Shown in pieces: positions 7,521-26,730 of a DNA stretch of 32,000 nt. Where the stretch lies: the NCBI GenBank assembly GCA_027460535.1, contig JAPZAR010000031.1:1-32000 (forward strand), in the 5' to 3' direction. The notes under the pieces are model-generated. The model saw only the letters and a program-made list of their open reading frames with translations, was not told the DNA's origin and searched no databases. Each line of letters begins with the position of its first letter. Position 1 is the stretch's first letter. The position numbers and the translations under genes were made by a program. Source of the stretch: Candidatus Methanoperedens sp. Its GTDB lineage: Archaea > Halobacteriota > Methanosarcinia > Methanosarcinales > Methanoperedenaceae.

Positions 7521-7575
7521 AAGAGGTGGGTATTGTAGTTTGCTTCCATTTTTGAAAATATTCCAATGTCTGTTA

Positions 7576-7912: not shown

Positions 7913-8197
7913 ATGGAATTTAAAGAAATAGATGTACCAGAGGATTCCGTCCAGCAAATTAATTATGAAGGGTCATTTGCTAACGTCAACCTTGATGGGT
8001 TATACGAAGATACGCTTGAGGATATAGAGAAGAAATTGGGATCAGTTCCTGACTTGATGAAGGGTTTCCCCAAGAGAAGACTTATCCATGAATGGCCTTC
8101 ATGGAAGAATGTTGGGGAGATAGACCTGGAAAGATCAAGATATCTTCTAAGTACCGATGAAATTTTAGAAGAAATGTTGAGCAAAAACCAGGGGTAA
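7913..8197 (+). CDS. Hypothetical acidic protein
   Basis: 94-aa ORF with an RBS (aagaggtgaa) upstream. It has only a weak resemblance to the N-terminal part of CMD/AhpD-like proteins (KKLGSVPDLMK..P..L...W), which is not enough to call. Confidence 0.35.
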   Translation: MEFKEIDVPEDSVQQINYEGSFANVNLDGLYEDTLEDIEKKLGSVPDLMKGFPKRRLIHEWPSWKNVGEIDLERSRYLLSTDEILEEMLSKNQG

Positions 8198-8208
8198 GTT
8201 GGCGAAAC

Positions 8209-9609: not shown

Positions 9610-9611
9610 AT

Positions 9612-10160
9612 ATGGAAAAATCCAGTTTCGAATCCACCCAGGAATTTTTTGACCTGTGGTTAAGGACATACAATGCCACAATGGGCAGGCTCGTCGAGAT
9701 GCCTGCCCTTGGTCCAACACGTGAGAAATCTGAAAAAATGATGAAGGGTTTCTCTACCTTTATCAACCTTTATACTGCAGGGATGGATTCCAATTTCAAT
9801 TTCCAGAGTATATTTACAGAAGCAATGCGCAGAGTGCGTGAAAAGACTGCAACTGATATGGAAGGGGAAATCACCCCTGAGAAATATAAGGATTTTTACA
9901 AGATCTGGATTGAAACTTACAGCGAGACCTTCAGGGAATTCCTGAAATCAGGTCATTTTGCGTCGGACATGGGGAAATTGAATTCGTATTTAATAGAATT
10001 TCAAAAATACAACAGGGAAATGCTTGAAGAGAATTATCTGAAACCTATGAATCTCCCTACAAAGACGGATATCGACGAGATCAACAAAGAGTTGTATTCT
10101 CTAAAGAAAACAGTAAAAGAACTGACCAGCCAGATCAAAGAACTAAAAGAGAAAAAATAG
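9612..10160 (+). CDS. phaE: Class III PHA synthase subunit PhaE
   Basis: The likely start is the ATG at 9612, 2 nt after the upstream stop; the track start 9570 overlaps the upstream gene. The N-terminal W..TY....G...E.PALGP motif and the C-terminal LPTKTDIDEINKELYSLKK coiled tail are typical of PhaE. The gene is adjacent to phaC. Confidence 0.75.
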   Translation: MEKSSFESTQEFFDLWLRTYNATMGRLVEMPALGPTREKSEKMMKGFSTFINLYTAGMDSNFNFQSIFTEAMRRVREKTATDMEGEITPEKYKDFYKIWIETYSETFREFLKSGHFASDMGKLNSYLIEFQKYNREMLEENYLKPMNLPTKTDIDEINKELYSLKKTVKELTSQIKELKEKK

Positions 10161-10181
10161 GTTTTTGGGTGATGAGATACC

Positions 10182-11339: not shown

Positions 11340-11340
11340 A

Positions 11341-12078
11341 ATGAGACTTGAAAATAAGGTTGCAATTATTACTGGGGCAGGAAGCGGTATTGGTAAAGAG
11401 ACTGCACTCCTGTTTGCAAAAGAAGGAGCTAACGTTGTTGTCGCCGATGTAAATGAAAAGGCTGGTGAGGAGACAGTGGCAGAGATCAAGAAAAATGGAG
11501 AGGCATTTTTTGCTAAACTGGATGTAACCAACAGGGAACAATCAAAACAGATGGTTAAAACTACTCTGGAAAAATATGGTAGAATAGATGTTTTGATAAA
11601 TAATGCAGGCATTGTTCAGGATGCCCTCGTAACAAAAATGACAGAGGAACAGTGGGACAGGGTTATTAATATCAATCTTAAAGGGCCTTTTAATTGTATC
11701 CAGGCTGTGGTTGAAGCTATGATCAATCAAGGAAGTGGTGCAATTATCAATACATCTTCCATCGTCGGACTGAATGGCAATGTCGGGCAGACCAACTATG
11801 CTTCAACCAAAGCCGGTCTAATTGGCATGACAAAGACCCTGGCAAAGGAACTTGGGAAAAAGGGGATAAGGGTCAATGCAGTGGCACCTGGATTTATAAT
11901 GACTCCAATGACCTCAAATGTACCTGAAAAAATACTTGAAATGATGAGAGAAAAAACTCCACTGCGCAGGCTGGGTGAACCAAAAGATGTTGCACATGCA
12001 TATTTATATCTTGCTTCAGAAGAGGCGAGGTTTGTTACCGGTGCGGTGCTTTGCGTTGATGGAGGACTCATAATATAG
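11341..12078 (+). CDS. fabG: Short-chain dehydrogenase/reductase, FabG/PhaB-like (candidate acetoacetyl-CoA reductase)
   Basis: TGAGSGIG Rossmann motif, NNAG, and a S...Y..SK catalytic set. The start lies 1 nt after the phaC stop. Confidence 0.8.
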   Translation: MRLENKVAIITGAGSGIGKETALLFAKEGANVVVADVNEKAGEETVAEIKKNGEAFFAKLDVTNREQSKQMVKTTLEKYGRIDVLINNAGIVQDALVTKMTEEQWDRVININLKGPFNCIQAVVEAMINQGSGAIINTSSIVGLNGNVGQTNYASTKAGLIGMTKTLAKELGKKGIRVNAVAPGFIMTPMTSNVPEKILEMMREKTPLRRLGEPKDVAHAYLYLASEEARFVTGAVLCVDGGLII

Positions 12079-12087
12079 GTGAGAAGT

Positions 12088-13266
12088 ATGAATAATGTAG
12101 TTATTGTATCGGCAACAAGAGCCGCAGTCGGGAAATTCGGGGGAATTCTTAAGGATTTTAGCCCAGGACAGCTTGGTTCTGTTGTATTGAAAGATGCCTT
12201 GAAAAGGGGTAATGTTGAATCAAATGACGTTGATGAGGTAATCCTGGGAAATGTTCTTTCAGCAGGTCATGGTCAGAATGTGGCAAGGCAGGCTGCAATC
12301 GGAGCGGGGATTCCAAAAGAGATACCCTCCTATTGCGTGAACAAAGTATGCGGCTCGGGTTTGAAGTCAGTCGTTCTGGGGGCACAATCTATCATGCTCG
12401 GTGATGCAGATGTTGTTCTGGCAGGCGGCGTCGAGTCCATGTCCATGGCTCCGTATGCGCTGAAAAAAAACCGCTGGGGAGCAAAGATGGGAAACGATGA
12501 AGTTGTGGATTTGATGATATATGATGGGCTGTGGGATATTTTCAACAATTACCATATGGGTATAACAGCAGAGAACGTAGCGGAAAAATATAATGTTACA
12601 CGGGAAGAACAGGATGAATTCTCGGCACAAAGCCAGAATAAAGCAGAGGCTGCTATCAAGGCAGGCAAGTTTAAAGAGGAGATTATTCCAGTAGAAGTTC
12701 CCCAGCCAAAAGGCGAGCCTGTGTTCTTTGATACAGATGAGTTTCCCAGATTCGGCACAACGAAAGAGATACTTGCAAAATTAAAACCTGCATTTAAAAA
12801 GAACGGGACAGTAACTGCGGGGAACGCATCAGGAATTAACGATGGAGCCGCTGCGGTTCTTTTGATGTCTGAAGAAAAGGCAAAAGATAAAGGACTTGAG
12901 CCTCTGGCGACTATCAAAAGCTACGGGTTAGGCGGCGTGCCTCCGGAAATAATGGGCATTGGGCCTATTGATGCAAGTAAAAAAGCTCTACAGCGTGCCA
13001 ATATCTCCGCAGGTGAGCTTGACCTGATAGAACTCAATGAAGCCTTTGCAGCGCAGAGCATCGCTGTTATCAGAGAACTGGGTTTTAATCCAGAACATGT
13101 TAACGTTAACGGCGGCGCTATAGCCCTGGGGCATCCCATAGGAGCAAGCGGTGCAAGGATATTGGTTACTCTTCTCTATGAATTAAGGAGAAGGAAAGGC
13201 ACATACGGCCTTGCTGCACTCTGTATCGGAGGTGGGCAGGGTATTGCTATGGTGGTAAAGAGGTGA
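12088..13266 (+). CDS. phaA: Acetyl-CoA acetyltransferase (bacterial-type thiolase II, PhaA/AtoB-like)
   Basis: VVIVSATR...[11 protein letters not shown] (nucleophilic Cys), [31 protein letters not shown]. The ATG at 12088 is preferred; a GTG at 12079 is the alternative. Confidence 0.9.
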
Positions 13267-13270
13267 TATT

Positions 13271-14125
13271 ATGAACATGAATGGAAAAAAATTGGAAGGA
13301 AAAGTTGCTCTGGTCACTGGAGGCTCAAGAGGAATCGGGCGGGCGATTGCCTTGCGGCTTGCGGAAGACGGCGCTGACGTTGTTATCAACTATCAGAACA
13401 CAAGAGAGCATGCCGAGAAGGTATCAAAGCTGATTGACCAGATTGGCATGGCAGATGAACTTGAAAAATTAACCATAAAGATAAACCACATGGATAATAA
13501 AGAGCAAGCAAAGGAAATATCAAAGTTAATAGAGGCTATCGGAAGGCACTCTTATGTATACCAGGCAAACGTCAGTAATCTTGAGCAGGTAAACAGGATG
13601 CGGGACGAAGTGATCGGGCAGTTCGGGAAAATAGACATTCTGGTTAATAACGCAGGAATAGTCAGGGATAAATCTTTTGTCAAAATGACTCCTGATATGT
13701 GGGGAGATGTTATGTCGGTGAACCTGGATGGAACCTTCTACTGCACCAAAGCATTCATAGAAGGAATGCTGGAAAGGAAATATGGCAGGATTGTGAACAT
13801 TTCATCGGTTGTGGGAAGAATGGGCAATTTCGGCCAGGCGAACTATACAGCTTCAAAGGCAGGCATGATAGGTCTTACAAAAGCACTGGCAAAGGAGTTT
13901 GCTGGCAAGGGTATAACTGTAAATGCAATAGCCCCGGGATTTATAGATACTGATATGGTAAAAGGGGTTCCTGATGAAATAATCGAAAAGATTCTTGCCA
14001 AAATACCACTTGGAAGACTGGGGAAGGCATCCGAGGTCGCAGGTGCGGTGGCCTACTTGGCATCACTGGACGGGGATTACATAACAGGTCAGGTGATAGA
14101 TATAAATGGGGGACTTTATATCTGA
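13271..14125 (+). CDS. fabG: Second FabG/PhaB-like SDR reductase, with an internal insertion of about 33 aa
   Basis: TGGSRGIG, NNAG, S...Y.ASK and PGFIDTDM motifs. The extra segment lies between beta2 and beta3 (see finding). Confidence 0.8.
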   Translation: MNMNGKKLEGKVALVTGGSRGIGRAIALRLAEDGADVVINYQNTREHAEKVSKLIDQIGMADELEKLTIKINHMDNKEQAKEISKLIEAIGRHSYVYQANVSNLEQVNRMRDEVIGQFGKIDILVNNAGIVRDKSFVKMTPDMWGDVMSVNLDGTFYCTKAFIEGMLERKYGRIVNISSVVGRMGNFGQANYTASKAGMIGLTKALAKEFAGKGITVNAIAPGFIDTDMVKGVPDEIIEKILAKIPLGRLGKASEVAGAVAYLASLDGDYITGQVIDINGGLYI

Positions 14126-14142
14126 GTGAAGGGTTCCCATAA

Positions 14143-14148
14143 TTTTTT
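14143..14148 (+). terminator. Oligo-T tract 18 nt after the last PHA-operon stop (possible archaeal terminator)
   Basis: A tttttt run sits directly downstream of 14125. Archaeal RNA polymerase terminates at T tracts. Confidence 0.3.
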
Positions 14149-14326
14149 GCATTGGTGGGGTTAGAGGATTTTTGGCCATGGAAGGAAGGAGATATGAAAA
14201 TAGCTATTGCGATAATCTCGATGAACTGGTGAGAAGGTGAACTTTAAAAGTCTGAAGCAAGCACGAGTGCAAGTGCACTATAGAAATATTATTAACACTA
14301 TGTAGGGATTTGAACAAAAAAAAGGA

Positions 14327-14399
14327 CGTCCGGACCGGGATTTGAACCCGGGTCGGGGGCTCGACAGGCCCTCATGATAGGCCGCTACACTATCCGGAC
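14327..14399 (-). tRNA. tRNA-Asp (anticodon GUC)
   Basis: Reverse complement GTCCGGATAGTGTAGCGGCCTATCATGAGGGCCTGTCGAGCCCCCGACCCGGGTTCAAATCCCGGTCCGGACG. Anticodon loop CTGTCGA. 73 nt. Confidence 0.85.
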
Positions 14400-14522
14400 T
14401 TTGCAGGGATTCGCTTAAATGGTTTTTTCGCATTTAAGCCTTTTGTTAAATGCAGGATTTTTGGGAGTCCAGCTTTAATAACGATAATCTTATGAGGAAT
14501 AGATACTATCAGACAAAAGAAA

Positions 14523-14596
14523 GGGCTCGTGGTCTAGTCGGCTATGACGTCGCTCTCACACAGCGGAGATCCTGAGTTCGATTCTCAGCGGGCCCA
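14523..14596 (+). tRNA. tRNA-Val (anticodon CAC)
   Basis: GGGCTCGTGGTCTAGTCGGCTATGACGTCGCTCTCACACAGCGGAGATCCTGAGTTCGATTCTCAGCGGGCCCA. Anticodon loop CTCACAC. 74 nt. Confidence 0.85.
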
Positions 14597-14603
14597 TACA
14601 AGT

Positions 14604-17600
14604 TCATTTTCGAACCAGCTTTGAAATCGAGTATAATCTCCACAAAGGCTTTGAATAGAAAAGGTATGCTGCCGTTAATCCGGTTATTAAAGCAAGTATG
14701 ACTGAACCAAGTACGTTGTGGATGACCTTCTTTATGTCGGATACCATTGATTTCTCAGTTATCGTAAAATTTACAGGATAGAACTCCCCCCAATTATTGT
14801 TCCTCTCCATAGCATGTATATAAATTACATGTGCTCCGACTGAAATATTAGTTGTATTTATCTCTGCTGTAACATCCTCTACCTGCGAGTCATATGTACC
14901 ATTTATCAGGCCAAGCGGTGTTCCATTCCCGGAAGTGCCCATTCTATCCATAAAATACTCGGCTGCCCTTATTTTCATCTTATAACCTGCCATTGCCCTC
15001 GCAGTCAGTTTTAACTTTTCGCCTTTGACAGCTTCGATATTATCCAGAGCCGCCTCCCTTATCACCGGTGAAACCAGAAATCTTTTTAGATTGTGTGATT
15101 GCAGGATGTGACAGGATTCGCAATTCTGTTCCAGCGCATGTGGCTCGTCGCTGATATTTATTGCCCCAAAATTTGGATTTTCCTGATAGATGTGACAGGA
15201 TTTGCAAGATCTTGGTGTAGTGTATGTTGGAACATGCGACTGCGGCTCTTGGCTGTCCAAAGTGTGGCATGCCCAGCATGCTTTATCAATCGAATCCGAC
15301 AAAAGGGTATCAATGGATGCATTTCCGTTCAATCTGTCGTGCTTTCCTAATCTTGATGAAACTGCATCAAAATTAGGAATATTAAGTTTTCTTGATGTAT
15401 CATGGCAGTTAACGCAATCAGCCCACATCCTTTGATCGGTATACAGGTTCGGTATGTGAAGATTTTCCGGTACTTTCCCCACTATGAAGGTATCATTGGG
15501 AAAAAGCCAGCTGCTATTATACCCAAAAGCTGTGGTGTTGGCGGTAGTTTTCATTATCGAGGGTGAAATCGCCAGCACGTCCTTAAGTATTACGAAATTT
15601 GGATTTGCCTGAACAACTGACGTAAGGTTTGCGCTGAAAATTGTTACATTGATATCTTGGTATCCTTTATATCTGATTGGACGGGTATAACTAAACTCAG
15701 AACCGCTGGTAACTGCCCAATCCTCGACAACGCTATTGTTAATCATTAAAGCCAGCAATGCCTGTTTGCTATCAGTACTAACGTCATTAAGTTTCAGAGA
15801 AATGTTCTCTCCAAGGTTCCACGTTTCCCCCACCTTTAGATATTTCTGTAACGAGGGAGAGGGAAGGAATGTCCCAAAATCGGTGTTGATCTGGTTTAAA
15901 ACATAATCGTCGCCATTATAGTATATCTTACTTTTATTTTCAGATATGAAATCAACGAATACATTGGTGAAATATATGATATCATTATTGGGGTTTTCTT
16001 CTAGATCTCTGTCAATAACCAGATACCGTTGTTTTTCTGGAGAATACCGGTACAGATGACAGGCAAAGCACGCAGTGCTGTTGGTTTCTGCATGGACTCT
16101 AGCTGTCCTGAATCCACTGAACTGAATGAGGCTTTGATTTGCGCCTTTGAATATTGATGTTATATTCAGGATAATAATAGGCATCTTGAACGTTCCATTG
16201 TCTATAGTAGTATATTCCTCATAGTTATATTGAGAGCCAACACCTATTGAGAATTCATCTACAATACTATAGTTCTTTAAAAGCTGAATTAAAGCCTCAC
16301 TCCTTTCTGAGGAGATCTCCACCACTTTCAAAGAATATCCATTACCGAGATATACGCTCTCTCCCTCAAAAGCTGTTAGTTTATTTCGTTCTTTTTCAAG
16401 TTCAATAAGCGAGGTTGTATTCTTGTATATTAAAGTTGCATTGCCCCAGGCTTCACTATTGTTTTTAACCAGATGGCAATAGGTGCACTTGAAAGAATCA
16501 ATTAAATTATCTGTCGACGCGTAATGTGATGTAAGAGCCAGATCCGTATTATTATCCGTTATCACCAGACTGTTTAGATGGCAGATTTGGCATTGTACTG
16601 AAGTGGTTATATTATAATTTGTAGCATTATTTTGATTACCATTTAGGCTTGCATTCTGGAAATGCGAATAAACCATAGGCTCTTGATAGGGGGATTGTGA
16701 GAGTGAATGGCAGTCATTGTTGTTACAGTTTTTTGGAGTTTTGTAATTTAGTGGATGCCCACCTGCAGGCTGTGCATTCTCACTTCCATCCCCATCTCCA
16801 TGGCAAGCCCAGCAGCGGAGATTGTTGCTGTTTAAAGAAGTTATAGCATTTGCATTCAGAGTCCTATGTACCGCTTTATCGTCATTGGCGGCTGAAAAAT
16901 TAACATGGTATGGCGCAGCTCCTCCAATATCGTGACAGCTAATGCAATTTTTGTTACCCCCTAAACCCATGGTACTATCGTGGAAAGTTGGAGGAGTTCC
17001 GCCGCCGCGCACATGGCAGCCATAGCATTCTGTGCTGGCTGTAAATGGAGTATGGTTCAAGGCAACAAAGGAGATTCTGGGATCATTTGGTGCCCCCCAT
17101 ATACTATTTCCACTGTTATTGTAATGGCAAAAGGCGCAATCCTTTGATTGGATAAGGTTATTGGTTGTTCCATAATGAGATACCCGGTCAAATATGTTAA
17201 AATAAGAGGCATTCGTATCTACACTGTTGCTATGGCAGGTAGTACAGCTCGTGGATATGTTAATGTCTTTACCATTTTGTATGTGCTCGCTAACCAAAGG
17301 TGCATTGAAAAGATTGCTGACATGACAATCTGAACACATTTTTACCAGGCTTAGATCTATTGGATGGATTTTTGGAGGAGTGCCATCCCAGTGGCAGGCA
17401 TAACAAGCATAGTTCAAATCATTTACATTGTTCACTCGTCCATGCATACTGTTATTTAAGGAAGTAAGATTTACGTATGGCATCCCCGCCAAAATAGTCC
17501 CATGACAATCAATGCAGTTTTCAAACCCTGCCATTGCGGCAGGCATCAGGTTTATAGTGATAAATAGGAGCAGACTGAAAATTATAGATCTGTTATTTAT

Positions 17601-17609
17601 GACATGCAT
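14604..17609 (-). CDS. Membrane-anchored multiheme c-type cytochrome (16 heme motifs) with two inserted S-layer-like beta domains
   Basis: N-terminal signal peptide. By eye I count 15 CxxCH plus 1 Cx4CH (CNNNDCH). Two paralogous non-heme domains lie at about aa 405-505 and 585-700. There is a C-terminal TM helix (VLGSVILALITGLTAAYLFY) with a basic tail. Confidence 0.9.
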   Translation of the reverse strand: MHVINNRSIIFSLLLFITINLMPAAMAGFENCIDCHGTILAGMPYVNLTSLNNSMHGRVNNVNDLNYACYACHWDGTPPKIHPIDLSLVKMCSDCHVSNLFNAPLVSEHIQNGKDINISTSCTTCHSNSVDTNASYFNIFDRVSHYGTTNNLIQSKDCAFCHYNNSGNSIWGAPNDPRISFVALNHTPFTASTECYGCHVRGGGTPPTFHDSTMGLGGNKNCISCHDIGGAAPYHVNFSAANDDKAVHRTLNANAITSLNSNNLRCWACHGDGDGSENAQPAGGHPLNYKTPKNCNNNDCHSLSQSPYQEPMVYSHFQNASLNGNQNNATNYNITTSVQCQICHLNSLVITDNNTDLALTSHYASTDNLIDSFKCTYCHLVKNNSEAWGNATLIYKNTTSLIELEKERNKLTAFEGESVYLGNGYSLKVVEISSERSEALIQLLKNYSIVDEFSIGVGSQYNYEEYTTIDNGTFKMPIIILNITSIFKGANQSLIQFSGFRTARVHAETNSTACFACHLYRYSPEKQRYLVIDRDLEENPNNDIIYFTNVFVDFISENKSKIYYNGDDYVLNQINTDFGTFLPSPSLQKYLKVGETWNLGENISLKLNDVSTDSKQALLALMINNSVVEDWAVTSGSEFSYTRPIRYKGYQDINVTIFSANLTSVVQANPNFVILKDVLAISPSIMKTTANTTAFGYNSSWLFPNDTFIVGKVPENLHIPNLYTDQRMWADCVNCHDTSRKLNIPNFDAVSSRLGKHDRLNGNASIDTLLSDSIDKACWACHTLDSQEPQSHVPTYTTPRSCKSCHIYQENPNFGAINISDEPHALEQNCESCHILQSHNLKRFLVSPVIREAALDNIEAVKGEKLKLTARAMAGYKMKIRAAEYFMDRMGTSGNGTPLGLINGTYDSQVEDVTAEINTTNISVGAHVIYIHAMERNNNWGEFYPVNFTITEKSMVSDIKKVIHNVLGSVILALITGLTAAYLFYSKPLWRLYSISKLVRK

Positions 17610-17688
17610 TTTTATAATTTAATTACGTTTTTATTATTATTAAGGACATGTAAGAATTTGGATAAATATTAAAAAATGATAGGGGCCA

Positions 17689-18753
17689 TCACCTCTTCCG
17701 TCCGAACATATAACCTGCCAAAAGCAATATCATTGCCATGGCGGCATTAAATCCCGGTGTCTTCTTTACAGGTATTGTCACTGCAGTTGGCCCTGGTTTT
17801 TGTGGTGTTTCTTCCCCCGCTACAGGTGTTTCAGCCGGTACCACCACGCCCTTCAAGCTTGTTATTGCAAATGGCGAGAAGGAATTTGTCTTTGCCTCAA
17901 AGTGAGTGAAAAGCTCATCTTTTCCTTTGGATCCAGTTTCCAGGAGTTCCCATTTTGTTCCATCCCATCTTTCAAGGGCAACATCGGTATCTTTGAATTC
18001 GTTCGATATGAGCCATGAATTCTCGACCTTGAATCTTACAGTAGCTTCTTTTATGTTCTTTGGAACTGCGAAGCCAGATGTTCCGACCCAGATATTGACG
18101 TATCTATAAACGGTCCCAGGTGCGCTTGTTTTTACAAGTGTTGACGTATCTTTTAGAAGTTCGATCTGAGTATTTATCAACCCTGCACTGACAGCCCCAA
18201 TGATTTCGAGCTGATAGACTGGGAGTATTGGAGTAGTGAAATTGTATCTTGTCGGCAGATCCTTGGCTATGAACTCTTCTTTGGACTCTTTAGCCTGGAT
18301 ATTTGAGTAATTCTCACCTGATGTCCCGCCGCCACCGCCGCCGCCTGATGGGCCACCACCACCGCCACCTGATGGACCACTGCCGCTGCTTCCTGTTGAA
18401 AGTTGTAGATTTTCCTCCTGGTCATCTAAAGCTGCTCTTGGTCCGGTCCATGAAGCCGACTTCCCGGTAGCAGTTGCTGTTATCGTCATGGAATCGCCTG
18501 CATTGACACTGACTGGCAGGTTTGCGAGCTGGAATACATAATATCCGCTGGCAATACCTCCAGTTGTCTGAGTCACATTTGCGGTGGTAGTACTATTTGA
18601 ACCTCCAGAAACTGAAAGCACTACTGTCACACCATTTATGGGCGTGCCATCGGTATCAGTTACCCGGCCGAATACAGTAAATGGGTTCCCATCCGATGCC
18701 ATTACAGGTATTATTGCTAACAGGAAAAAAATTGAGAAGAGAATTTTTTTCAT
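17689..18753 (-). CDS. PGF-pre-PGF domain surface protein with a PGF-CTERM archaeosortase sorting signal
   Basis: The likely start is MKKILFSIFFLLAIIPVMA at 18753, 10 nt after the upstream cytochrome stop; the track start 18810 overlaps that gene. Domain order is CarboxypepD_reg-like domain, poly-Gly linker, ENYSNI...YRYVNIW...FSPFAI (PGF-pre-PGF pattern), a Pro/Thr linker, then TPGF plus TM plus GRKR at the C-terminus. Confidence 0.8.
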   Translation of the reverse strand: MKKILFSIFFLLAIIPVMASDGNPFTVFGRVTDTDGTPINGVTVVLSVSGGSNSTTTANVTQTTGGIASGYYVFQLANLPVSVNAGDSMTITATATGKSASWTGPRAALDDQEENLQLSTGSSGSGPSGGGGGGPSGGGGGGGTSGENYSNIQAKESKEEFIAKDLPTRYNFTTPILPVYQLEIIGAVSAGLINTQIELLKDTSTLVKTSAPGTVYRYVNIWVGTSGFAVPKNIKEATVRFKVENSWLISNEFKDTDVALERWDGTKWELLETGSKGKDELFTHFEAKTNSFSPFAITSLKGVVVPAETPVAGEETPQKPGPTAVTIPVKKTPGFNAAMAMILLLAGYMFGRKR

Positions 18754-18763
18754 AATATCCTCT

Positions 18764-21700
18764 CTATTTTGTTCCCACAAATGTGTACGTGTTTCCATTG
18801 GTGGTACCATTCCCTTTTATAAAGTAAGGTTTGTAGCCTGCCATGGTGAAATTGGTTCCTGAATAAAATCCGACACCTCCACTCGGCACTATGATCTGGT
18901 AACTGACCCATATCTGGTTGGTTGAATCCCATTTGAGCACTTTTGAGACGCCAGGAATACCTGTTGAAGATGTATACAGGAGATTTCCTGCATACAACGT
19001 CGGGTTCGGGTTAAGCCAAAGCACGATGAGATTATATTCTGATACCAGTGTGTCGGTAGTGTAGTATGTGGTGCCGCCGCTTGTCAAATTCGGGGCGATC
19101 GATCCATTAAAAACCGACCTTGCACCGTGGCATTTGTTACAATCTATAGTCTTACTGATATTATGGAACGTCCAATCTGTAGCTGTACTGGTTCCTCTGT
19201 AAGTTGTCCATTTATTGGTGCTTTGATTCCTGTAGACACCACCTTTGACTTTTCCTGTACTCACATTAACCACATAGTCTGTACTATTCCTTACAAAAGT
19301 ATCGTCATGACATGCATCGCATGTTACATTCCCGTGGCTTGAATATTCCCTGAAGTTAGAGGTAGTGTGCTCGGATGTTGCTACATGGCATGCTTCGCAA
19401 CCTGTTTTAGTTGTGGCAATGTTATTGACCTCGAACGTATGTTCTGAACCATTATTGATGGTTGAATTCATATGGCAGTCAGCACATGTGAAACCCAGGG
19501 AAGTTTTATGGGATCCGTCATAATAAATATCACGGTCAGAGATGTGATGAGAACTTCCGTTGTGGCATTTCTCGCACAACTCCGTAACATTCCCCACTGT
19601 ATCATAGACAGGCGACCCGGCTGAACTGCTTGAGGTGGCATTGTAAAATGCAATGTATATCGGTGATGTGCCATTACCACTATATGTATCGTTGTGGAGG
19701 TTATGACAAACCCTGCACTGGACACCTTGGTTATTTGATGTGTTATAACGCGCGCTGTTTGACTGATTATACATCGGAGGTGAATGACATTTTAAGCAGT
19801 AGCCGCTGTAATATGTTCCATGAAGACTTGATTGAGCATGGCCGCTCTGGTTCCATGCTATGGTTTCATTCTCTATCTTAGGTTGTCCTCCACCAGTTCC
19901 ATTGTGGCATGTCAAAGTACATGTATAATACGGGAACATGCCTTTACCAACACCGCCATTGGTGCTGAGGGGAATACCTGTAAGATTGTAGTTATAGAAG
20001 TTGTACTCAACAGTCAGATTATGGTCATGGGTGTATAGCGATGAGTTAAGGGCGAACTGCTGCGTTGTGTTCGCAAAGTGGCACTGCGTGCAGTCTGCAT
20101 AATTCTGCCCGTACCCGTGATTTCCATGGCTTTCACTAAGGTTAACACCTTCAACGTGACAATTCCTGCATGAGTTGCTTTCATTCACGATGTAACCTGT
20201 GTAACCATTATGCTGTGTATCATAGCCAGCATGGCAATCTGTGCAGTTTGGTGCAGCGACATTCATTGTCTGGTTATGATTTGAGTTGTTGACTGCACTG
20301 GCGTATGAAGAGTGGCATTTGACGCAACCAATGTCTCCAAATGTCGGCGCTAATAATGAGCTCGTTACAGCGGACTTGGTACCATGACACTTATCACAAC
20401 TAACATCCTTACTTATATTGTGCAATGGCCATGTTGTTGGAGCTGCAGACCCATCTTTGTAGCTGGATATTAATCCTGTTGCTGTGTCATTATAGAGACC
20501 ATAAATTATTTTGACTCCCGTACTGTTAAGGCCGACTGCATAGCCAGTTGCATTCCTTGCAACTGTCTTGTCGTGACAGGCTTCGCATGTAACTTTACCT
20601 GTATGGTTCGCTGTGAACTGGAATGTATGGTCTCCTGATTTATGGCACACTTCACACCCAGTTACACCTGTTGTTAAGTTCGTGACTTCGAACATATGTG
20701 ATTGGTAATTGAATCTTGCACCACTAGTAGTATTCAAATGACAATCAGCACAATCAAAGCCAACTTGGGTCTTGTGAGTTCCTGCAAACTTGCTGTCGTG
20801 GCCATCTCCATAATGGCATTTTTCACACAAAACTGTAGCATTGGCAACCGTGTCATAGATTGTGTAACCCGCAAGAGAACTTAAAGTTGCGTTATAGAAC
20901 GCCAGTATTCCTGTCCCTGGACTACTAAACGATCTATTGTGGAGGTTATGACATACCCTGCAATTAATACCCTGCCAATCGGCTACTGGAATAAGTGTAC
21001 CCGATGATGCACTCGCATTATAATTCAGAGGCGACTTGCATTTGGCACAGGAATTCTTCTGGTCAGTGGGGGGTTCTACCAATGACTGGGCATGCGCACT
21101 CTGGACCCAGGTTTGTGATGCATTGTCGACTTTTACATTGCTACCATCGTGATGATGGCATGATGCCGCATCGCATGAATAGTATGGAAACGTTCCTACG
21201 CCCACACCACCATTACTCTTTAGAGGCATCTGTATCGTTCCTGTTAGATTGTATTGATAGAAGTTACGGATAATTGTCAGATTGTGGTCATGTACATAGA
21301 GTGACGCATTCAAACTGAAAGACGTGTTCATATTTGCAAAGTGACACATCGTACAATCATCGGTTGATGTATGTTTTTCATCTTTGGTTTGATGGCACCC
21401 TGAATTCCTGCACGTGTTACTTTCGTTCACTGTAAAACCCTTGGCTCCTGTTGTATGACCGTAGCTGGGTACATATCCTACGTGACAGTCAATACATGCA
21501 GGCGCGCTTGCATTCAGGGTCTGGTTATGCTTTGAGGCGTTATATGCAGTGGCGTATGTAGGATGGCAATCTGCACATACGAGGCCAGTCGTAATCGTGC
21601 CGTTAAATACAGAGGTTGCATTGTGGCATTTGCTGCAATCTACACTCTTGGTTATATTATGCAGGGGCCATGTTTTAGGTTTACCTCTGTCCAATACATA

Positions 21701-22969
21701 AGTAGTCCAATTACTGGTCGGGGTCGGTTTCCACAGACCGTAATTACCGTCACTTGATACGGAATAGTTCGTAGCATTTACTGTTGTAAAAGTTTGATCA
21801 TGGCATGCTACGCATTCAACTTTACCTGTATGCATTGACGTGAACTGGAATGTATGGTCTTCTGATTTATGGCACACTTCACAGCCGGTCACATTTGAGG
21901 TAGTGTTCTTGACCTCGAATGTATGGAACTGCGTTAAATCACTTTCGATTGATCTGTTCGCATGGCAACTGGCACAGGTGAAATTCGCACCAGCTGGGTC
22001 TTTGTGAATTCCTGCAAACTTACTGTCATGAGAGGTAGTTGTGTGGCATTTCTCGCACAATTCGGTAGCATTGTGAACCTGTACATAGACCGGGTAGCCC
22101 GCACGAGAGCTTAGAGTTCCATTATAGAACGCTAGCGGTTCTCCATTCACCGGGCTGCTATAAGAAACATTATGCATGTCATGGCATACCCTGCACTGGA
22201 TGCCCTGCCAGTCGGCCGCTGCCACAGGTGCGCTCTGGTTGGCACTTACGTTATAGTTGGGCGGTGACTTGCATCTGGCACATGACATCGTCTCACTGCC
22301 GGTATATGATTGTGCATGTTTACTCTGGTTCCAGCCGATGGTTATATTTTCCTTACTTTTGCTTGTATGGCAGGTCAGAGTACAGGTATAGTACGGGAAC
22401 ATGCCCTTGCCTACATGGCCGTCGGCGCTGAGGGGCATTCCTAAAAGATTGTAATTATAAAAATTGTATTCAACGGTGAAATTATGGTCATGTTGGTAAT
22501 AAGTATGAGAACTAGAAAGAGGAAACACTTTAGTAGTATTGGCGAAATGGCATTTTGTGCAGTCTGCGGGACTAGCTGCATTGCCGGTATGGGTGTTTGT
22601 ATCAACAGGACGCGATCCACTGGTTGCATGGCATCCAGGTTGACCATTTTGTAACGTATTACAGGTTGTCACTGTGACCTGGTATCCGATATAACCGCTA
22701 ACTGTATGCGTGCTAGTATCATATGCCCCCCTGTGGCAAATAAGACAGGCAGTTGTTTGGGAGTTATCTATATTATCATGTTGCCTCGGTAAAAAAGTTA
22801 TCGCGCTGTTGGAAGCGATGGCTGAAACATATGCAGGATGGCAGGCATTACAAGCATTATTTGTAACATCTTGAGCCGTATAGGTTGCAATCGCTTCCGG
22901 TATGGCTACCGCCACAGCCAATAAAATCAAACACATCAATATGCCGTTTCGTTTCATAGTACCCATCAT
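18764..22969 (-). CDS. Giant secreted multiheme c-type cytochrome, 1401 aa, about 36 heme-binding motifs in three 12-heme modules plus a C-terminal non-heme domain
   Basis: Signal peptide (ILMCLILLAVAVAIPEAIA). By eye I count 29 CxxCH, 2 CxxCK, 2 Cx3CH, 2 Cx4CH and 1 Cx9CH. There is no C-terminal TM. Confidence 0.9.
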   Translation of the reverse strand: MMGTMKRNGILMCLILLAVAVAIPEAIATYTAQDVTNNACNACHPAYVSAIASNSAITFLPRQHDNIDNSQTTACLICHRGAYDTSTHTVSGYIGYQVTVTTCNTLQNGQPGCHATSGSRPVDTNTHTGNAASPADCTKCHFANTTKVFPLSSSHTYYQHDHNFTVEYNFYNYNLLGMPLSADGHVGKGMFPYYTCTLTCHTSKSKENITIGWNQSKHAQSYTGSETMSCARCKSPPNYNVSANQSAPVAAADWQGIQCRVCHDMHNVSYSSPVNGEPLAFYNGTLSSRAGYPVYVQVHNATELCEKCHTTTSHDSKFAGIHKDPAGANFTCASCHANRSIESDLTQFHTFEVKNTTSNVTGCEVCHKSEDHTFQFTSMHTGKVECVACHDQTFTTVNATNYSVSSDGNYGLWKPTPTSNWTTYVLDRGKPKTWPLHNITKSVDCSKCHNATSVFNGTITTGLVCADCHPTYATAYNASKHNQTLNASAPACIDCHVGYVPSYGHTTGAKGFTVNESNTCRNSGCHQTKDEKHTSTDDCTMCHFANMNTSFSLNASLYVHDHNLTIIRNFYQYNLTGTIQMPLKSNGGVGVGTFPYYSCDAASCHHHDGSNVKVDNASQTWVQSAHAQSLVEPPTDQKNSCAKCKSPLNYNASASSGTLIPVADWQGINCRVCHNLHNRSFSSPGTGILAFYNATLSSLAGYTIYDTVANATVLCEKCHYGDGHDSKFAGTHKTQVGFDCADCHLNTTSGARFNYQSHMFEVTNLTTGVTGCEVCHKSGDHTFQFTANHTGKVTCEACHDKTVARNATGYAVGLNSTGVKIIYGLYNDTATGLISSYKDGSAAPTTWPLHNISKDVSCDKCHGTKSAVTSSLLAPTFGDIGCVKCHSSYASAVNNSNHNQTMNVAAPNCTDCHAGYDTQHNGYTGYIVNESNSCRNCHVEGVNLSESHGNHGYGQNYADCTQCHFANTTQQFALNSSLYTHDHNLTVEYNFYNYNLTGIPLSTNGGVGKGMFPYYTCTLTCHNGTGGGQPKIENETIAWNQSGHAQSSLHGTYYSGYCLKCHSPPMYNQSNSARYNTSNNQGVQCRVCHNLHNDTYSGNGTSPIYIAFYNATSSSSAGSPVYDTVGNVTELCEKCHNGSSHHISDRDIYYDGSHKTSLGFTCADCHMNSTINNGSEHTFEVNNIATTKTGCEACHVATSEHTTSNFREYSSHGNVTCDACHDDTFVRNSTDYVVNVSTGKVKGGVYRNQSTNKWTTYRGTSTATDWTFHNISKTIDCNKCHGARSVFNGSIAPNLTSGGTTYYTTDTLVSEYNLIVLWLNPNPTLYAGNLLYTSSTGIPGVSKVLKWDSTNQIWVSYQIIVPSGGVGFYSGTNFTMAGYKPYFIKGNGTTNGNTYTFVGTK
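19127..22852 (-). repeat. Intragenic triplication: three paralogous modules of about 417-425 aa (first Cys of each at aa 40, 465 and 882)
   Basis: The motif order is conserved in all three modules. DNA-level identity persists, e.g. tgaactggaatgtatggtct.ctgatttatggcacacttcaca at about 20614 and about 21841 (offset 1227 bp). Confidence 0.9.
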
Positions 22970-23194
22970 CTATCCATTGTTCTGCTTGAAATGGCGTTTT
23001 TTTCTGCAGATATGAATATAATATCGTTTATGTACTACCCCTACTTATATATTTCGCATGATAGTAATTATAATGATGAAATATTTAATGATTATAAGTC
23101 TTTATGGATGTTACTGACTTTTGCCAGAAAGACATTTAGAAACAGATAAATTCTTAAATCAAAAATGCTATTATGCCCCTGTAGAGGTGCTAAC

Positions 23195-24466
23195 ATGAAA
23201 TTGATTGCGTATTTATTTTCACTATTGATCCTGGCGGCGCCGGCGGTCGCCTCGGATTGGAGCCAGTTCGGATATGATAGTTCTCATTCTGGATTTACAA
23301 CGGATAGCGTTGTACCTCCGCTTGTCTTGAAATGGACTGCAAACCTCTATTATAATACGGATTCATCCCCTGTAGTCGTGAACGGGGTTGTTTATGTAGG
23401 CTCAAACGGTGGAGTCCATGCGCTCGATGCAGAATCCGGAAAAGAGATCTGGAGGTCCCCGACAGATGGATTCATAGGAGCTGTTCCCATGGTCATGGAT
23501 GGGACACTGTACGTTGGGGGGAATGACGAACACTTTTATGCAATCGATATAAAAGATGGCTCTAAAAAATGGATCTATAAGGATGCTACCGGTGGGTTCG
23601 TTTCCTCCGCCACTGCTGCCGATAATCTTATTTATGTAGCATCAGAAGACGGCTCTCTCTATGTATTTAATCCCCAGGTCGGAGAACCTTCGTGGACTAA
23701 ATTAACAGGGAAAAGCATAGATTCGTCTCCTGCCGTTTCAAATAACACGGTTTACTTCGGGAATGACAATGGGGCTTTTTTTGCCCTTGATGCCGGGAAT
23801 GGCAGGGAGATGTGGCATTATTACACAGACATAGGTATGATAAAATCTTCACCTGCTGCTGCAAATGGCATCCTGTTCTTCGGTTCAAATAATGGAAATG
23901 TGTATGCTCTGACGGATAAAGGGGCTTTGAAATGGAAATTTTCGACAGGGAGCGATGTGGTATCATCTCCTTCGGTTAAAGATGGTACGGTCTTTGTAGG
24001 CTCAAAAGATTTTAACTTTTATGCTATTGATTCTGCAACAGGAAACATGAAATGGAAATTCCAGACAGCGGGCTTTGTTGATGCTTCATCTGCGATTTCA
24101 AATGATGTCATTTATTTCGGGTCGAAAAATAATTTCATCTATGCTCTTGATACTAATACAGGGAATCTCCTCTGGAAAAACTTGACTGGAATGGATACCA
24201 CAGATTACATAACCTCGCCTGCTATCTCCGGTAATATGCTTTATGCAGTAACCCATAGCGGAAAAGTATATGCATATTCTATTGCAGGGGAGGTTCAGAC
24301 AACTCCGGCCATAACACAGACAATAAAGGCTACAACAATATCGCCTACGCCAACACCTGTCCAGACACCGGCAGTTACCACCCCACAAAAGACGCCGGGA
24401 TTTGAATATGCAGCATTAATACTGTTAATAGCAGCGATAGTAAGGAAAAGAATTAATTCTAAATGA
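23195..24466 (+). CDS. PQQ-like (BamB-type) beta-propeller repeat protein with a PGF-CTERM sorting signal
   Basis: The start at 23195 (MKLIAYLFSLLILAAPAVA) has a gaggtg RBS. About 8 repeats of the SSPAV.NG.VYVGS.DG..YALD...G...W type are present. A Thr/Pro linker is followed by TPGFEYAALILLIAAIVRKR. Confidence 0.85.
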   Translation: MKLIAYLFSLLILAAPAVASDWSQFGYDSSHSGFTTDSVVPPLVLKWTANLYYNTDSSPVVVNGVVYVGSNGGVHALDAESGKEIWRSPTDGFIGAVPMVMDGTLYVGGNDEHFYAIDIKDGSKKWIYKDATGGFVSSATAADNLIYVASEDGSLYVFNPQVGEPSWTKLTGKSIDSSPAVSNNTVYFGNDNGAFFALDAGNGREMWHYYTDIGMIKSSPAAANGILFFGSNNGNVYALTDKGALKWKFSTGSDVVSSPSVKDGTVFVGSKDFNFYAIDSATGNMKWKFQTAGFVDASSAISNDVIYFGSKNNFIYALDTNTGNLLWKNLTGMDTTDYITSPAISGNMLYAVTHSGKVYAYSIAGEVQTTPAITQTIKATTISPTPTPVQTPAVTTPQKTPGFEYAALILLIAAIVRKRINSK

Positions 24467-24605: not shown

Positions 24606-25532
24606 ATGTTCAGGATACGTCTGCGTGATTTTATAATTACCAGTGATGACTGGATATTCGCGGTTGCGGATTATTGTCACGAGAAGGGCATCCGTTCTGT
24701 TCTCAGATACGTGCCTGACCCAGAGGGTTCAAGAGGAACGCGTAAAAAATTCCGCAAGCTGGACTTCGACGATGCCTTCAGCTTTATGAAAGCGAATCGC
24801 CCTCAGTGGGTGGATGATGTACATATTGTCCCATGGGATTGTGTCAAACAGGTGCTTGCTCCAGAGAAAAAACTCCCTATTTTGCTGAAAGACAATAAGA
24901 AACTGAGAGACATAGTAAACACTCTCCTGAAAGGGGATGTGCCACTTGAAAAAATGGGAGTGACGGGGTCTCTACTTGCCGGCTTGCAGAACGAATTCTC
25001 AGATATAGATTTCATCGTATATGGAAAATCCTGGTTCCAGGCGCGGGATATCATAGCAGAGGCAAAAAAGGAATGTTCTACCGTTAAAGAGATAAGCGAT
25101 GAAATGTGGCATGATATTTACAGGAAAAGGAAGCCCGAGCTTTCCTTTGATGAATTTCTCTGGCATGAGGTAAGAAAAGGAAACCGCGGCATGGTGGATG
25201 GGACATATTTTGACCTCCTTTATGTAAGGGACTGGGAAGATATCACCCGGTGTCTGAGGGGAAAAGATATAGGTATGGAAACGATCCGGGCAAAGGTCAC
25301 GAATGCCGATTTTGCATTTGACAGCCCCGCTATCTTTGAAATCGACCATCCCGAGATAAGCTGCGTGCTGTCCTATACCCACACCTATGCAGGCCAGGCA
25401 CTGGTAGGGGAAAGGATCGAGGCTCGGGGAATGGTAGAGGTCGTGGGTAATATCAAAAGGCTCGTTGTTGGGACATCAAGAGAACCAAAAGGGGAATGGA
25501 TACGTTCCCTCACGCTTCTTGAGAAGGAATAG
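24606..25532 (+). CDS. Predicted nucleotidyltransferase (Pol-beta superfamily; archaeal COG1665-like)
   Basis: GVTGSLLAGLQNEFSDIDFIVYG is the G-S ... D-x-D minimal NTase motif. It is preceded by an N-terminal domain of about 115 aa. Confidence 0.55.
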   Translation: MFRIRLRDFIITSDDWIFAVADYCHEKGIRSVLRYVPDPEGSRGTRKKFRKLDFDDAFSFMKANRPQWVDDVHIVPWDCVKQVLAPEKKLPILLKDNKKLRDIVNTLLKGDVPLEKMGVTGSLLAGLQNEFSDIDFIVYGKSWFQARDIIAEAKKECSTVKEISDEMWHDIYRKRKPELSFDEFLWHEVRKGNRGMVDGTYFDLLYVRDWEDITRCLRGKDIGMETIRAKVTNADFAFDSPAIFEIDHPEISCVLSYTHTYAGQALVGERIEARGMVEVVGNIKRLVVGTSREPKGEWIRSLTLLEKE

Positions 25533-26730
25533 GCTCTTTCCCGTATCCTATTTCTTCCTTTGTCAAATAGCATGCCGGGTCATCCGCCCAGACGTTGCCA
25601 TATATTGCCTCTGCACGCACGCGGAAGTTCCCGTTACATATTTCGAACCATTTGCATCGGGCGCACCTGTCCGCATTTGCTTTTATCAGGGGCTTCCTGT
25701 TCTTGAGACCAGCCATCAGTGGATTGCTTTTATCTGTCCATATCTCGCTGAATTTCCGCTCCTTTACGTTACCGAAGGAATAATGTCTCCAGAACTGGTC
25801 TGCATGTACCGATCCGTCCCATGAAACACAGGCTATGCCGATGCCTGAGGAATTGCCCTGGTTCATCTGGAGAAGTTCATACACCTCTGCCGCACGTTTG
25901 GGATATTCTTTCAGCAAACGGAAGTAAACATAAGGACCGTCTGCGTGGTTATCTACAGTCAACACCTCAATAGGGAAGCCATTATCATGCAAAGCCTTTG
26001 TCCTGTCCATAATGAGATCGAGCGTCTTTCGGCTTTCTTCATGTGATAGTTCTTCTTTTACCAGTTTTGAGCCGCGCCCTGCATATACAAGATGGTAAAA
26101 ACATACTCGGGGGATTTTTTCCTTTTCAAGCAGGTCGAATATGGCCGGGATATCCTTCACGTTCTTCTTATTGATAGTGAAGCGCAGGCCCACCTTAATG
26201 CCTTCTTCAAGGCAGTTGCGCATACCCTGCAATGCCAGATCGAATGAGCCTTTTACGCCCCTGAATTTATCGTTGGTCTCTCTCGTCCCGTCCAGCGAAA
26301 CACCCACGTACGAAAGCCCAATCTCTTTCAAGACCTTCGCCTTCTTTTTGTCGATCAGTGTACCATTCGTGGAGATGACCGCACGCATCCCTTTTGACCT
26401 TGCGTACAGCGCAAGCTCAGGTAGATCAGGACGCATGAGCGGCTCACCGCCGGAGAAAAGGATTACTGGCGCGCCGAACTGTGCAAGGTCGTCGATGAGC
26501 TCCTTTCCTTGCTGCGTCGTTAGCTCGTTCTTATACTCAATGTCCTTTGACTGGGCATAACAGTGCACACATTTCAGGTTGCAGCGCCTGCCCATGTTCC
26601 AGACCACTACCGGTTTTTTATCCTTTGAGAACTGCAATAAATGCGAGGGAAGTTTCCCGGAATCGCGCCCGTACCTGAGAGCGTCTGAGGGTTCAACGGT
26701 TCCGCAGTAAAGCTTTGAAATTCCTATCAT
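25510..26730 (-). CDS. Radical SAM/SPASM enzyme, NirJ-like; candidate alternative heme biosynthesis AhbC/AhbD
   Basis: CNLKCVHCY (Cx3Cx2C) and a C-terminal Cys-rich SPASM region (CARCKWFEICNG...ACY). The N-terminal LYCGTVEPSDALRYG motif is, as I recall, typical of the NirJ/Ahb group. Confidence 0.6.
   Translation of the reverse strand: MIGISKLYCGTVEPSDALRYGRDSGKLPSHLLQFSKDKKPVVVWNMGRRCNLKCVHCYAQSKDIEYKNELTTQQGKELIDDLAQFGAPVILFSGGEPLMRPDLPELALYARSKGMRAVISTNGTLIDKKKAKVLKEIGLSYVGVSLDGTRETNDKFRGVKGSFDLALQGMRNCLEEGIKVGLRFTINKKNVKDIPAIFDLLEKEKIPRVCFYHLVYAGRGSKLVKEELSHEESRKTLDLIMDRTKALHDNGFPIEVLTVDNHADGPYVYFRLLKEYPKRAAEVYELLQMNQGNSSGIGIACVSWDGSVHADQFWRHYSFGNVKERKFSEIWTDKSNPLMAGLKNRKPLIKANADRCARCKWFEICNGNFRVRAEAIYGNVWADDPACYLTKEEIGYGKEPIPSQEA

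Follow-up and report, generated by a model that had tools for sequence, protein, structure and literature searches.

The subject of this analysis is a cell-surface locus contained in a 32-kb stretch of DNA from Candidatus Methanoperedens, hereafter called the window, within which open reading frames (ORFs), gaps and domains were read. Three co-oriented genes on the minus strand, referred to below as the trio, encode a multiheme cytochrome (MHC) of 1401 aa, a 354-aa protein with a PGF-pre-PGF domain and a second MHC of 1001 aa with S-layer domains; a beta-propeller gene is transcribed divergently from them (Table 1). The four ORFs reported by the initial annotation were recovered at the same positions and on the same strands, and the gaps of 10 and 79 nt as well as the shared AT-rich spacer of 225 bp were reproduced on the sequence. 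The stop codon TAG of the 1401-aa gene is followed by AGAGGATATT, 10 nt with a Shine-Dalgarno-like GAGG, and then by the ATG of the 354-aa gene. The first ATG listed for the latter is at 18810, and the start that provides a signal peptide is at 18753. Two starts are available to the propeller ORF, at 23165 (433 aa) or 23195 (423 aa). The second, which is preceded by GAGGTG, provides a signal peptide and agrees with the public 423-aa gene call, is likely the correct one; measured from this ATG, the divergent spacer has a GC content of 29.8% as compared to 42.1% for the entire window. The 79-nt spacer located before the 1001-aa gene contains a T6 run 12 nt past the stop codon and may possibly constitute a partial terminator or an internal promoter, TATA-like and oligo-T signals having been read by eye only.

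The trio proteins carry signal peptides and are devoid of cytoplasmic domains. A single signal-type hydrophobic segment is present at the N-terminus of each cytochrome, and a C-terminal helix is found only in the 1001-aa protein. The density of N-x-S/T sequons reaches 4.9 and 3.5 per 100 aa in the 1401-aa and 1001-aa proteins respectively, versus 0-1.1 in the seven cytoplasmic or membrane proteins of the window, an enrichment which fits surface exposure of both cytochromes. A similar density (5.0) is displayed by a putative surface ORF at positions 85-1701.

Table 1. Features of the locus and of its surroundings in the window
Feature	Coordinates	Strand	Remarks
Upstream multiheme cytochrome, 1401 aa	18764..22969	-	Signal peptide; 36 heme motifs; 69 N-x-S/T sequons; without membrane anchor
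12-heme unit 1, residues 28-452	21614..22888	-	52% / 50% identical to units 2 / 3
12-heme unit 2, residues 453-869	20363..21613	-	Internal repeat comparison
12-heme unit 3, residues 870-1290	19100..20362	-	Internal repeat comparison
Non-heme C-terminal domain, about residues 1296-1401	18767..19084	-	Family without annotation
10-nt spacer AGAGGATATT	18754..18763	-	GAGG ribosome-binding motif
PGF-pre-PGF surface protein, 354 aa	17689..18753	-	
N-terminal beta-sandwich, residues 25-120	18394..18681	-	Model and profile
24-bp tandem repeat coding the Gly-rich linker	18328-18386	-	GPSGGGGGG x2
PGF-pre-PGF domain, residues 147-298	17860..18315	-	TIGR04213; pLDDT >90
C-terminal anchor TPGFNAAMAMILLLAGYMFGRKR	17692..17760	-	PGF-CTERM-like, by eye
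79-nt AT-rich spacer	17610..17688	-	20% GC
S-layer multiheme cytochrome, 1001 aa	14604..17609	-	ANME MHC-A type by sequence features
N-terminal 10-heme region, residues 27-379	16473..17531	-	Presumably outside the S-layer, as deduced from the C-terminal anchor
S-layer subdomain 1, residues 377-499	16113..16481	-	PF07752
Linker heme motif CFACH, residues 514-518	16056..16070	-	Between the S-layer subdomains; invariant
S-layer subdomain 2, residues 556-687	15549..15944	-	TIGR01567 stretch; PF07752
Membrane-proximal 4-heme region, residues 732-834	15108..15416	-	Motifs, alignment
C-terminal transmembrane helix, residues 962-985	14655..14726	-	Hydropathy peak; followed by a basic tail
Divergent AT-rich spacer, 225 bp	22970..23194	.	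Presumed promoter region of the trio
PQQ/BamB-like beta-propeller, 423 aa	23195..24466	+	PGF-CTERM-like tail; neighbour, outside the conserved module
Polyhydroxyalkanoate (PHA)-type operon	8524-14125	+	Two PhaE-like genes (361 and 196 aa), PhaC, short-chain dehydrogenase (SDR), thiolase, second SDR
tRNA-Asp	14327-14399	-	Ends in a T8 run
tRNA-Val	14523-14596	+	7 nt past the stop codon of the 1001-aa gene, on the opposite strand

In the definition of Chadwick et al. (2022, PMC9012536), the MHC-A class of the anaerobic methanotrophic archaea (ANME) has an S-layer domain, a C-terminal transmembrane (TM) helix and a single heme motif in the linker between the two S-layer subdomains, and is free of the additional domains that characterize MHC-B and MHC-C. 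The 1001-aa protein contains 15 CxxCH and one Cx4CH motifs, its total of 16 exceeding the more than 10 hemes expected of the class. Fifteen of these motifs are invariant in an alignment of 14 sequences and the remaining one, at C158, is kept in at least 90%. The S-layer family PF07752 is matched over two stretches (64.2 bits, cut-off 30), and TIGR01567 from NCBIfam yields 66.1 bits, under its cut-off of 121.9. C514, C517 and H518 of the linker heme are invariant, and a hydropathy peak at residues 962-985 marks the TM helix. No Pfam match to a peptidase-M6-like (MHC-B) or pectin-lyase-like (MHC-C) domain was obtained, the first heme motif being located as early as residue 32. Judged by these features, the protein is a member of the published MHC-A class, and the 16 hemes, S-layer-like domains and C-terminal anchor announced initially are borne out by motifs, PF07752 and hydropathy alike. 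As the class is already described, only the partnership of the protein with its neighbours is new. At least 135 homologues were found, nearly all of them in Methanoperedens and ANME-2/3, and a sequence search of the PDB with the 1001-aa protein returned nothing.

The 36 heme motifs of the 1401-aa protein comprise 29 CxxCH, two Cx3CH, two Cx4CH, two CxxCK and one Cx9CH, for a chance expectation of about 0.003 CxxCH per 1400 aa according to our own rough estimate. They are distributed among three 12-heme units, about 50% identical to each other, which display their variant motifs at matching positions, and none of the 36 positions is lost in four orthologues (52-61% identity). The total can be relied upon because of this 3 x 12 layout and the conservation of every position. 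The sixth motif of each unit (residues 230, 641 and 1058) is of particular composition: a lysine-type, NrfA-like CxxCK is found in units 1 and 2 of the four orthologues and in unit 3 of three of the four, the window copy showing CLKCH in unit 3. Such an exchange between lysine and histidine is suggestive of a variant axial ligand instead of a catalytic site. A single marginal match to a c7-type structure (3oue, E 0.002) resulted from the PDB sequence search with the 1401-aa protein, and none to a solved nanowire cytochrome.

In the middle protein, a signal peptide precedes an N-terminal sandwich of transthyretin/CarboxypepD_reg-like type; a Gly-rich linker connects this sandwich to the PGF-pre-PGF domain, from which a Thr/Pro linker leads to a PGF-type anchor. 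In its structure model (pLDDT 78.7), the PGF-pre-PGF domain forms a second beta-sandwich and the chain ends in a helix. This domain, one half of what the initial annotation had claimed for the protein, is firmly identified by TIGR04213 (154 bits for a cut-off of 28, E 2.9e-45, span 1-152 of 153). The other half, a PGF-CTERM tail, can be recognized by eye only: a tripartite signal made of TPGF, some 16 hydrophobic residues and RKR is visible in the 354-aa protein and in the propeller, and the PGF-CTERM profile did not match either tail in Pfam and NCBIfam at E <=10. Among 25 full-length orthologues of the middle protein, the tail contains PGF in 5 and SGF or AGF in 8, the remaining 12 displaying a plain TM helix. 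What is conserved, as far as these tails indicate, is membrane tethering and not archaeosortase processing. ArtA domains have been reported in ANME-2d genomes (PMC5244752). A PDB sequence search with the 354-aa protein produced Gly-linker noise only. The N-terminal domain (NTD) of the middle protein was turned into a profile, which matched 19 ORFs in the surveyed loci described below; all are PGF-pre-PGF genes that adjoin S-layer cytochromes, three of them situated on the window contig, and by this profile evidence the NTD is specific to the copies located beside S-layer cytochromes.

In order to evaluate synteny, 78 loci around S-layer cytochrome homologues and five additional ones obtained by exact-protein look-up were surveyed. 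In each of them, profiles built in this analysis served to map ORFs rich in hemes, PGF-pre-PGF domains and the 354-aa protein's NTD. A gene combining the PGF-pre-PGF domain and the NTD adjoins every orthologue of the 16-heme protein for which enough flanking DNA is available (window, L004, L005, L009, L082/83, L084 and L086). In all of these loci except L004, the MHC gene is followed after 10-12 nt by that of the PGF-pre-PGF protein and, at a further -4 to 89 nt, by that of the S-layer MHC. This order is therefore seen in at least six Methanoperedens contigs besides the window, with identities between orthologues of 45-61% for the upstream MHC, 53-67% for the PGF-pre-PGF protein and 57-59% for the S-layer MHC. 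The flanking contexts are five in number when L004 is counted: PHA and propeller genes in the window, oxidoreductase, HAD and glutamate-synthase genes in L005, L009 and L086, and others in L082, L084 and L004. The upstream cytochrome varies in length by whole units, from 966 to 1403 aa; a 560-aa upstream gene call with 11 motifs is found in L083, a second contig carrying the L082 protein.

A paralogous trio, composed of an MHC with 15-17 hemes, a PGF-pre-PGF protein with the NTD and an S-layer MHC with 23 hemes, is colinear in L007, L036, L039 and L059; its genes are inverted yet adjacent in L035, L038 and L071. It is older than the trio of the window. Five ANME-2a loci display a PGF-pre-PGF protein and an 8-heme MHC followed by an S-layer MHC with 28-31 hemes. 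Co-conservation in related genomes, which the initial annotation had named as a check, was observed for the trio in at least seven loci, and an ANME-2a version exists. Giant single-gene S-layer cytochromes were encountered as well, none of them with a PGF-pre-PGF neighbour: 4725 aa and 112 motifs in L034 (2-14179, MnB_21), matching a published 113-heme protein, 2856 aa and 62 motifs in L022, and 2161 aa and 47 motifs in L012. An ORF with a putative thermosome-like N-terminal sequence, read by eye, adjoins S-layer cytochromes in two ANME-2a loci and one Methanoperedens locus (L042, L072 and L026).

Parts of the trio are also found covalently joined. One or two 12-heme units are fused to the N-terminus of MHC-A-type proteins in P0029, P0042, P0047, P0048, P0099 and P0256 (1998 aa), and in P0036 and P0040 a PGF-pre-PGF domain separates the membrane helix of an MHC-A protein from its last extracellular domain. 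These fusions support a functional link between the parts and provide a polarity as well, the 12-heme units belonging at the end away from the anchor and the PGF-pre-PGF domain next to the membrane. The fused proteins do not contain the non-heme C-terminal domain of about 95 aa, the matches to the 1401-aa query ending at positions ~1297-1310, and no gene with PGF-pre-PGF domain and NTD occurs in the loci of long or fused S-layer MHCs. This joint loss of the C-terminal domain and of the middle gene is the basis for proposing that the two dock onto each other. A further candidate, a fusion of a 44-heme MHC with a PGF-pre-PGF domain in L024, was discarded, its ORF crossing a stretch of N and the domain matches being partial.

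The ~95-aa domain is restricted to the free-standing versions of the 12-heme-unit cytochrome, and Pfam contains no model of the family of which it is a member. A profile search of the full library retrieved 99 representative surface proteins from archaea and bacteria, with the consensus 'GYNLI...W.S..Q.W...G.GYF'. The domain occurs in tandem copies in 77 of them and at the extreme C-terminus in 63; none of the 99 ends in a hydrophobic tail or membrane anchor, and only a handful are cytochromes. Prediction of a 115-aa C-terminal stretch by AlphaFold2 from nine sequences resulted in an unusable model (pLDDT 35.8). When the C-terminal tail of the 36-heme cytochrome was compared by hhalign with those of the 16-heme upstream cytochromes of the paralogous trio, the outcome (probability 54%, E 1.3e-4) was suggestive, though no proof, of a relationship. 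The domain looks like a docking module, which renders doubtful the initial claim of a freely secreted cytochrome, its 36 motifs and signal peptide being nevertheless well established.

Taken together, these data lead us to favor, with some confidence, the interpretation that the three minus-strand genes form one functional unit, an outward cell-surface electron conduit. Built upon gene anatomy, conservation of the trio, fusions and surface-type features, this model supplies by inference the topology, the way in which electrons would flow and the role in docking, and can be summarized as follows. The 1001-aa cytochrome would be a type-I membrane protein, anchored in the cytoplasmic membrane by its C-terminal helix, and the space below the S-layer would house its four C-terminal hemes. 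Its two S-layer subdomains and linker heme would be built into the protein shell, and its ten N-terminal hemes would point outward. The 1401-aa protein would prolong the chain by 3 x 12 hemes at this outer N-terminal end, where it is placed because 12-heme units are covalently fused there in other species. Electrons from methane oxidation would leave the quinol:cytochrome c oxidoreductases of the membrane, cross the shell via the 16-heme protein and be passed over the length of the 36-heme protein until they reach minerals, humics, electrodes or partners. The membrane-tethered 354-aa protein would be produced in a fixed ratio with the 36-heme protein by means of the coupled 10-nt spacer and serve as a docking or assembly subunit holding the free-standing cytochrome, probably via its non-heme C-terminal domain. 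The more specific proposal that the 354-aa protein is a dedicated membrane-tethered receptor, with the ~90-aa C-terminal domain of the 36-heme cytochrome as its ligand, is put forward as a tentative one, about which we are ourselves doubtful. Should it be correct, receptor and C-terminal domain would represent an unrecognised non-covalent system for hanging proteins on the cell envelope, both parts becoming dispensable once the wire is fused to the S-layer cytochrome.

Published expression data can be related to this model. Ca. Methanoperedens performs extracellular electron transfer and its S-layer MHCs are highly expressed during Mn(IV) reduction (Leu et al. 2020, PMC7082337). An S-layer MHC with 23 hemes is upregulated on anodes in Ca. 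Methanoperedens (Ouboter et al. 2024, PMC10874420). The supplementary table of the same study lists two MHC genes, _00015 and, for the S-layer MHC, _00017, which enclose one non-MHC gene. Normalised counts rise from 314 on nitrate to 534-1402 at the four anode potentials for _00015 and from 26 to 82-179 for _00017, the log2 fold changes of anode versus nitrate being 0.8-2.2 and 1.7-2.8 respectively (PMC10874420).

A number of observations weigh against the conduit model. Genes _00015 to _00017 are probably the paralogous trio, an identification derived from numbering and not from sequence. The roughly 10-fold difference in counts between _00015 and _00017, together with the T6 run and the 79-nt AT-rich spacer of the window, indicates that the third gene, for the 1001-aa protein, may be partly transcribed on its own. 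In L004, the closest relative (76% identity), the PGF gene is inverted and no cytochrome is visible before the contig end. About half of the loci of 23-heme S-layer MHCs, approximately seven, are devoid of partners, such as that of Ca. M. nitroreducens ANME2D (L037), and the partners are therefore not obligatory. The PGF-pre-PGF domain adjacent to the membrane anchor in P0040 is hard to reconcile with docking outside the S-layer. As to the role of the 354-aa protein, essentially no literature on the PGF-pre-PGF domain was found, and a Foldseek search of the PDB with its model returned weak and mixed matches (GAIN, SlaB and carboxypeptidase regulatory domains; E ~1e-3, TM <=0.36), used here for description of the fold only. 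Finally, heme attachment, localisation and contact among the three proteins are predictions from sequence.

The same facts were weighed for other arrangements. The location of the PGF-pre-PGF domain directly before the membrane anchor in P0036 and P0040, the tight coupling of the 36-heme and PGF genes and the joint loss of C-terminal domain and PGF gene would be expected as well if the 36-heme protein, kept below the S-layer by the lipid- or TM-anchored 354-aa protein, acted as a pseudo-periplasmic reservoir or relay that links the oxidoreductases of the membrane to the base of the S-layer cytochrome, charge storage being possible with 36 hemes. The fused 12-heme units are nevertheless situated at the N-terminal end of the S-layer MHCs, away from the anchor, and the 69 sequons suggest glycosylation of an exposed surface, even though pseudo-periplasmic proteins can be glycosylated too; we consider such a relay unlikely. 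Electrons could also flow inward, being taken up from reduced minerals, humics, cathodes or partners for nitrate reduction or a methanogenesis-like metabolism. Multiheme chains are reversible in principle, the sequence sets no direction, and the adjacent PHA storage operon (8524-14125) points to a flexible redox metabolism. An inward conduit is quite improbable in view of the apparent rise of the paralogous trio with an anode as acceptor (PMC10874420) and of S-layer MHC expression during Mn(IV) reduction (PMC7082337). Mere clustering of independent surface proteins, with the middle one a generic S-layer accessory or adhesin without a role in electron transfer, could be invoked since Methanoperedens genomes contain dozens of MHC and PGF-pre-PGF paralogues and some S-layer MHC loci are partnerless. 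This explanation is the least credible of all, given that the same order and 10-12-nt spacing are kept in five flanking contexts, that the neighbourhood persists through inversions and is accompanied by two kinds of fusion, and that the NTD is specific to cytochrome-adjacent copies.

The initial annotation had proposed a four-gene conduit in which the propeller would be the fourth structural component and archaeosortase processing of two scaffolds an integral part. The AT-rich spacer common to propeller and trio and the TPGF tails of both the 354-aa protein and the propeller are in line with this proposal, as is the only further occurrence of the propeller, in L026, where a 59% identical protein is encoded 2.6 kb from a different S-layer MHC paralogue. 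Synteny largely refutes it: neither the other type-I loci nor any of the seven type-II loci contain the propeller, which is missing beside every other trio. A metagenome scan for the propeller returned one 1.4-kb contig and distant matches, and was uninformative. Its propeller nature was confirmed by PQQ_2 (PF13360, 176.6 bits for a cut-off of 27.6) and by PF13570, which also passes its threshold, both being generic propeller families. The PQQ-dehydrogenase model TIGR03075 reached 99.9 bits, so far under its cut-off of 480 that no redox role is indicated. Since just 5 of the 25 middle-protein orthologues display canonical PGF and 12 end in a plain TM helix, and since the propeller lies outside the module, two archaeosortase substrates are not a conserved property of the system. 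The four-gene version is accordingly very improbable, and gene order indicates that the propeller is a neighbour and not a part of the conduit. What is retained of the original proposal is the three-gene S-layer-MHC unit, on the grounds of synteny, fusions and electrode-induced transcripts of what is apparently the paralogous trio.

The conserved partnership in which a modular secreted cytochrome and a PGF-pre-PGF protein accompany an S-layer MHC is apparently new, as are the orienting fusions, the pattern of joint loss and the unannotated docking-type domain. The initial description of the locus as an undescribed system thus applies to the partnership, since neither the PGF-pre-PGF partner nor the conserved trio is mentioned in the literature searched, and not to the S-layer cytochrome, which belongs to a known class. 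The solved PDB structures compared include no ANME S-layer cytochrome, and no report of a purified complex was found. Electron transfer of ANME across the protein shell is still a model derived from single genes. The locus narrows the question to three conserved proteins, the fusions indicating which ends meet, and brings in an uncharacterised PGF-pre-PGF partner apparently omitted by published models. The trio therefore represents a concrete target for structural and biochemical work, and a better marker in genome surveys of the capacity for extracellular electron transfer than the mere presence or absence of an S-layer MHC. Caution is required in such surveys as not every neighbouring surface gene or PGF tail belongs to the system.

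The locus is situated on the host chromosome. The S-layer MHC had no relative in a scan of viral contigs, whose coverage may not extend to Borgs. On one side, tRNA-Val and tRNA-Asp separate it from the PHA operon; on the other side lie a nucleotidyltransferase gene and a radical-SAM gene. The latter, a radical-SAM/SPASM gene (25510-26730, minus strand), encodes AhbC of the alternative heme pathway (TIGR04546, 758.8 bits, cut-off 650) and is located 2.5 kb from the start of the 1401-aa cytochrome. In L007, hemD, cobA, hemC and hemL directly follow the paralogous trio and AhbA is found further on (13154-16890 and 22048-22503), so that heme-synthesis genes are present beside two different trio loci. 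The ORF at 85-1701, which probably extends past the left edge of the window, contains 3.3 copies of a 291-bp unit (97 aa) with 97% identity (window 1-968); its product is a putative surface protein with 27 N-x-S/T sequons and a CarboxypepD_reg-like C-terminal domain. In-frame tandem repeats of near-perfect identity are reportedly typical of Borgs and seldom seen in the chromosomes of Methanoperedens (PMC9879509). The region at 4001-8200 of the window begins with a low-GC stretch (33% at 4001-6000), after which only short ORFs occur up to about 8200. These include a 102-aa fragment of an electron-transfer flavoprotein (ETF) domain (7185-7493) and, among the public gene calls, a 71-aa fragment of ATP-synthase c, and may be gene remnants.

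Several known systems can be compared to the trio. OmcZ and OmcS nanowires are likewise extracellular multiheme proteins proposed for long-range transfer; in contrast to these, the 1001-aa and 1401-aa proteins do not match solved filament cytochromes in sequence. The OmcZ-like cluster of Methanoperedens contains MHCs of 37 and 15 hemes, the second being given 16 in the supplementary table (PMC10874420). Identity of the present locus with this cluster was considered and set aside, neither OmcZ nor an OzpA-type protease gene being reported in the window. The ANME locus for MHC-B and MHC-C, with its 'MHC-D' fusion in ANME-3 (PMC12180501), resembles the trio by its adjacent large cytochromes and by a fusion taken as evidence of joint function. 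It differs by its peptidase-M6-like and pectin-lyase-like domains, a dedicated CcmF and the absence of a PGF-pre-PGF partner.

Archaea possess no outer membrane, and the resemblance to MtrCAB of Shewanella and Geobacter is one of function: neighbouring genes encode a heme chain facing the periplasm, an element that spans the layer and an outward cytochrome. The window proteins yield weak Pfam matches to MtrC/MtrF domains II/IV, and no MtrB-type beta-barrel porin was found among the window ORFs. Unlike in MtrCAB, the barrier would be a protein lattice crossed by an S-layer-fused cytochrome, and the systems are not homologous. With the MHC-A proteins of ANME-2 and ANME-3 (McGlynn 2015, as cited; PMC9012536), the 1001-aa protein shares the S-layer double domain (DUF1608/PF07752), the linker heme, the TM helix, more than 10 hemes, the lack of peptidase-M6 or pectin-lyase domains and the proposed role as S-layer conduit; it is smaller, with its 16 hemes, than most described members and travels with two partner genes. 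The paralogous trio of Ca. Methanoperedens BLZ2, METP1 and others, of which only the S-layer gene is discussed in the anode study (PMC10874420), has an upstream cytochrome of 15-17 hemes with ~25% identity to that of the window, where a triplicated 12-heme unit is found, and an S-layer MHC of 23 hemes instead of 16. Both trios have in common the gene order, a middle protein combining NTD and PGF-pre-PGF domain, an upstream cytochrome with a non-heme C-terminal tail, and S-layer MHCs with 35-48% identity.

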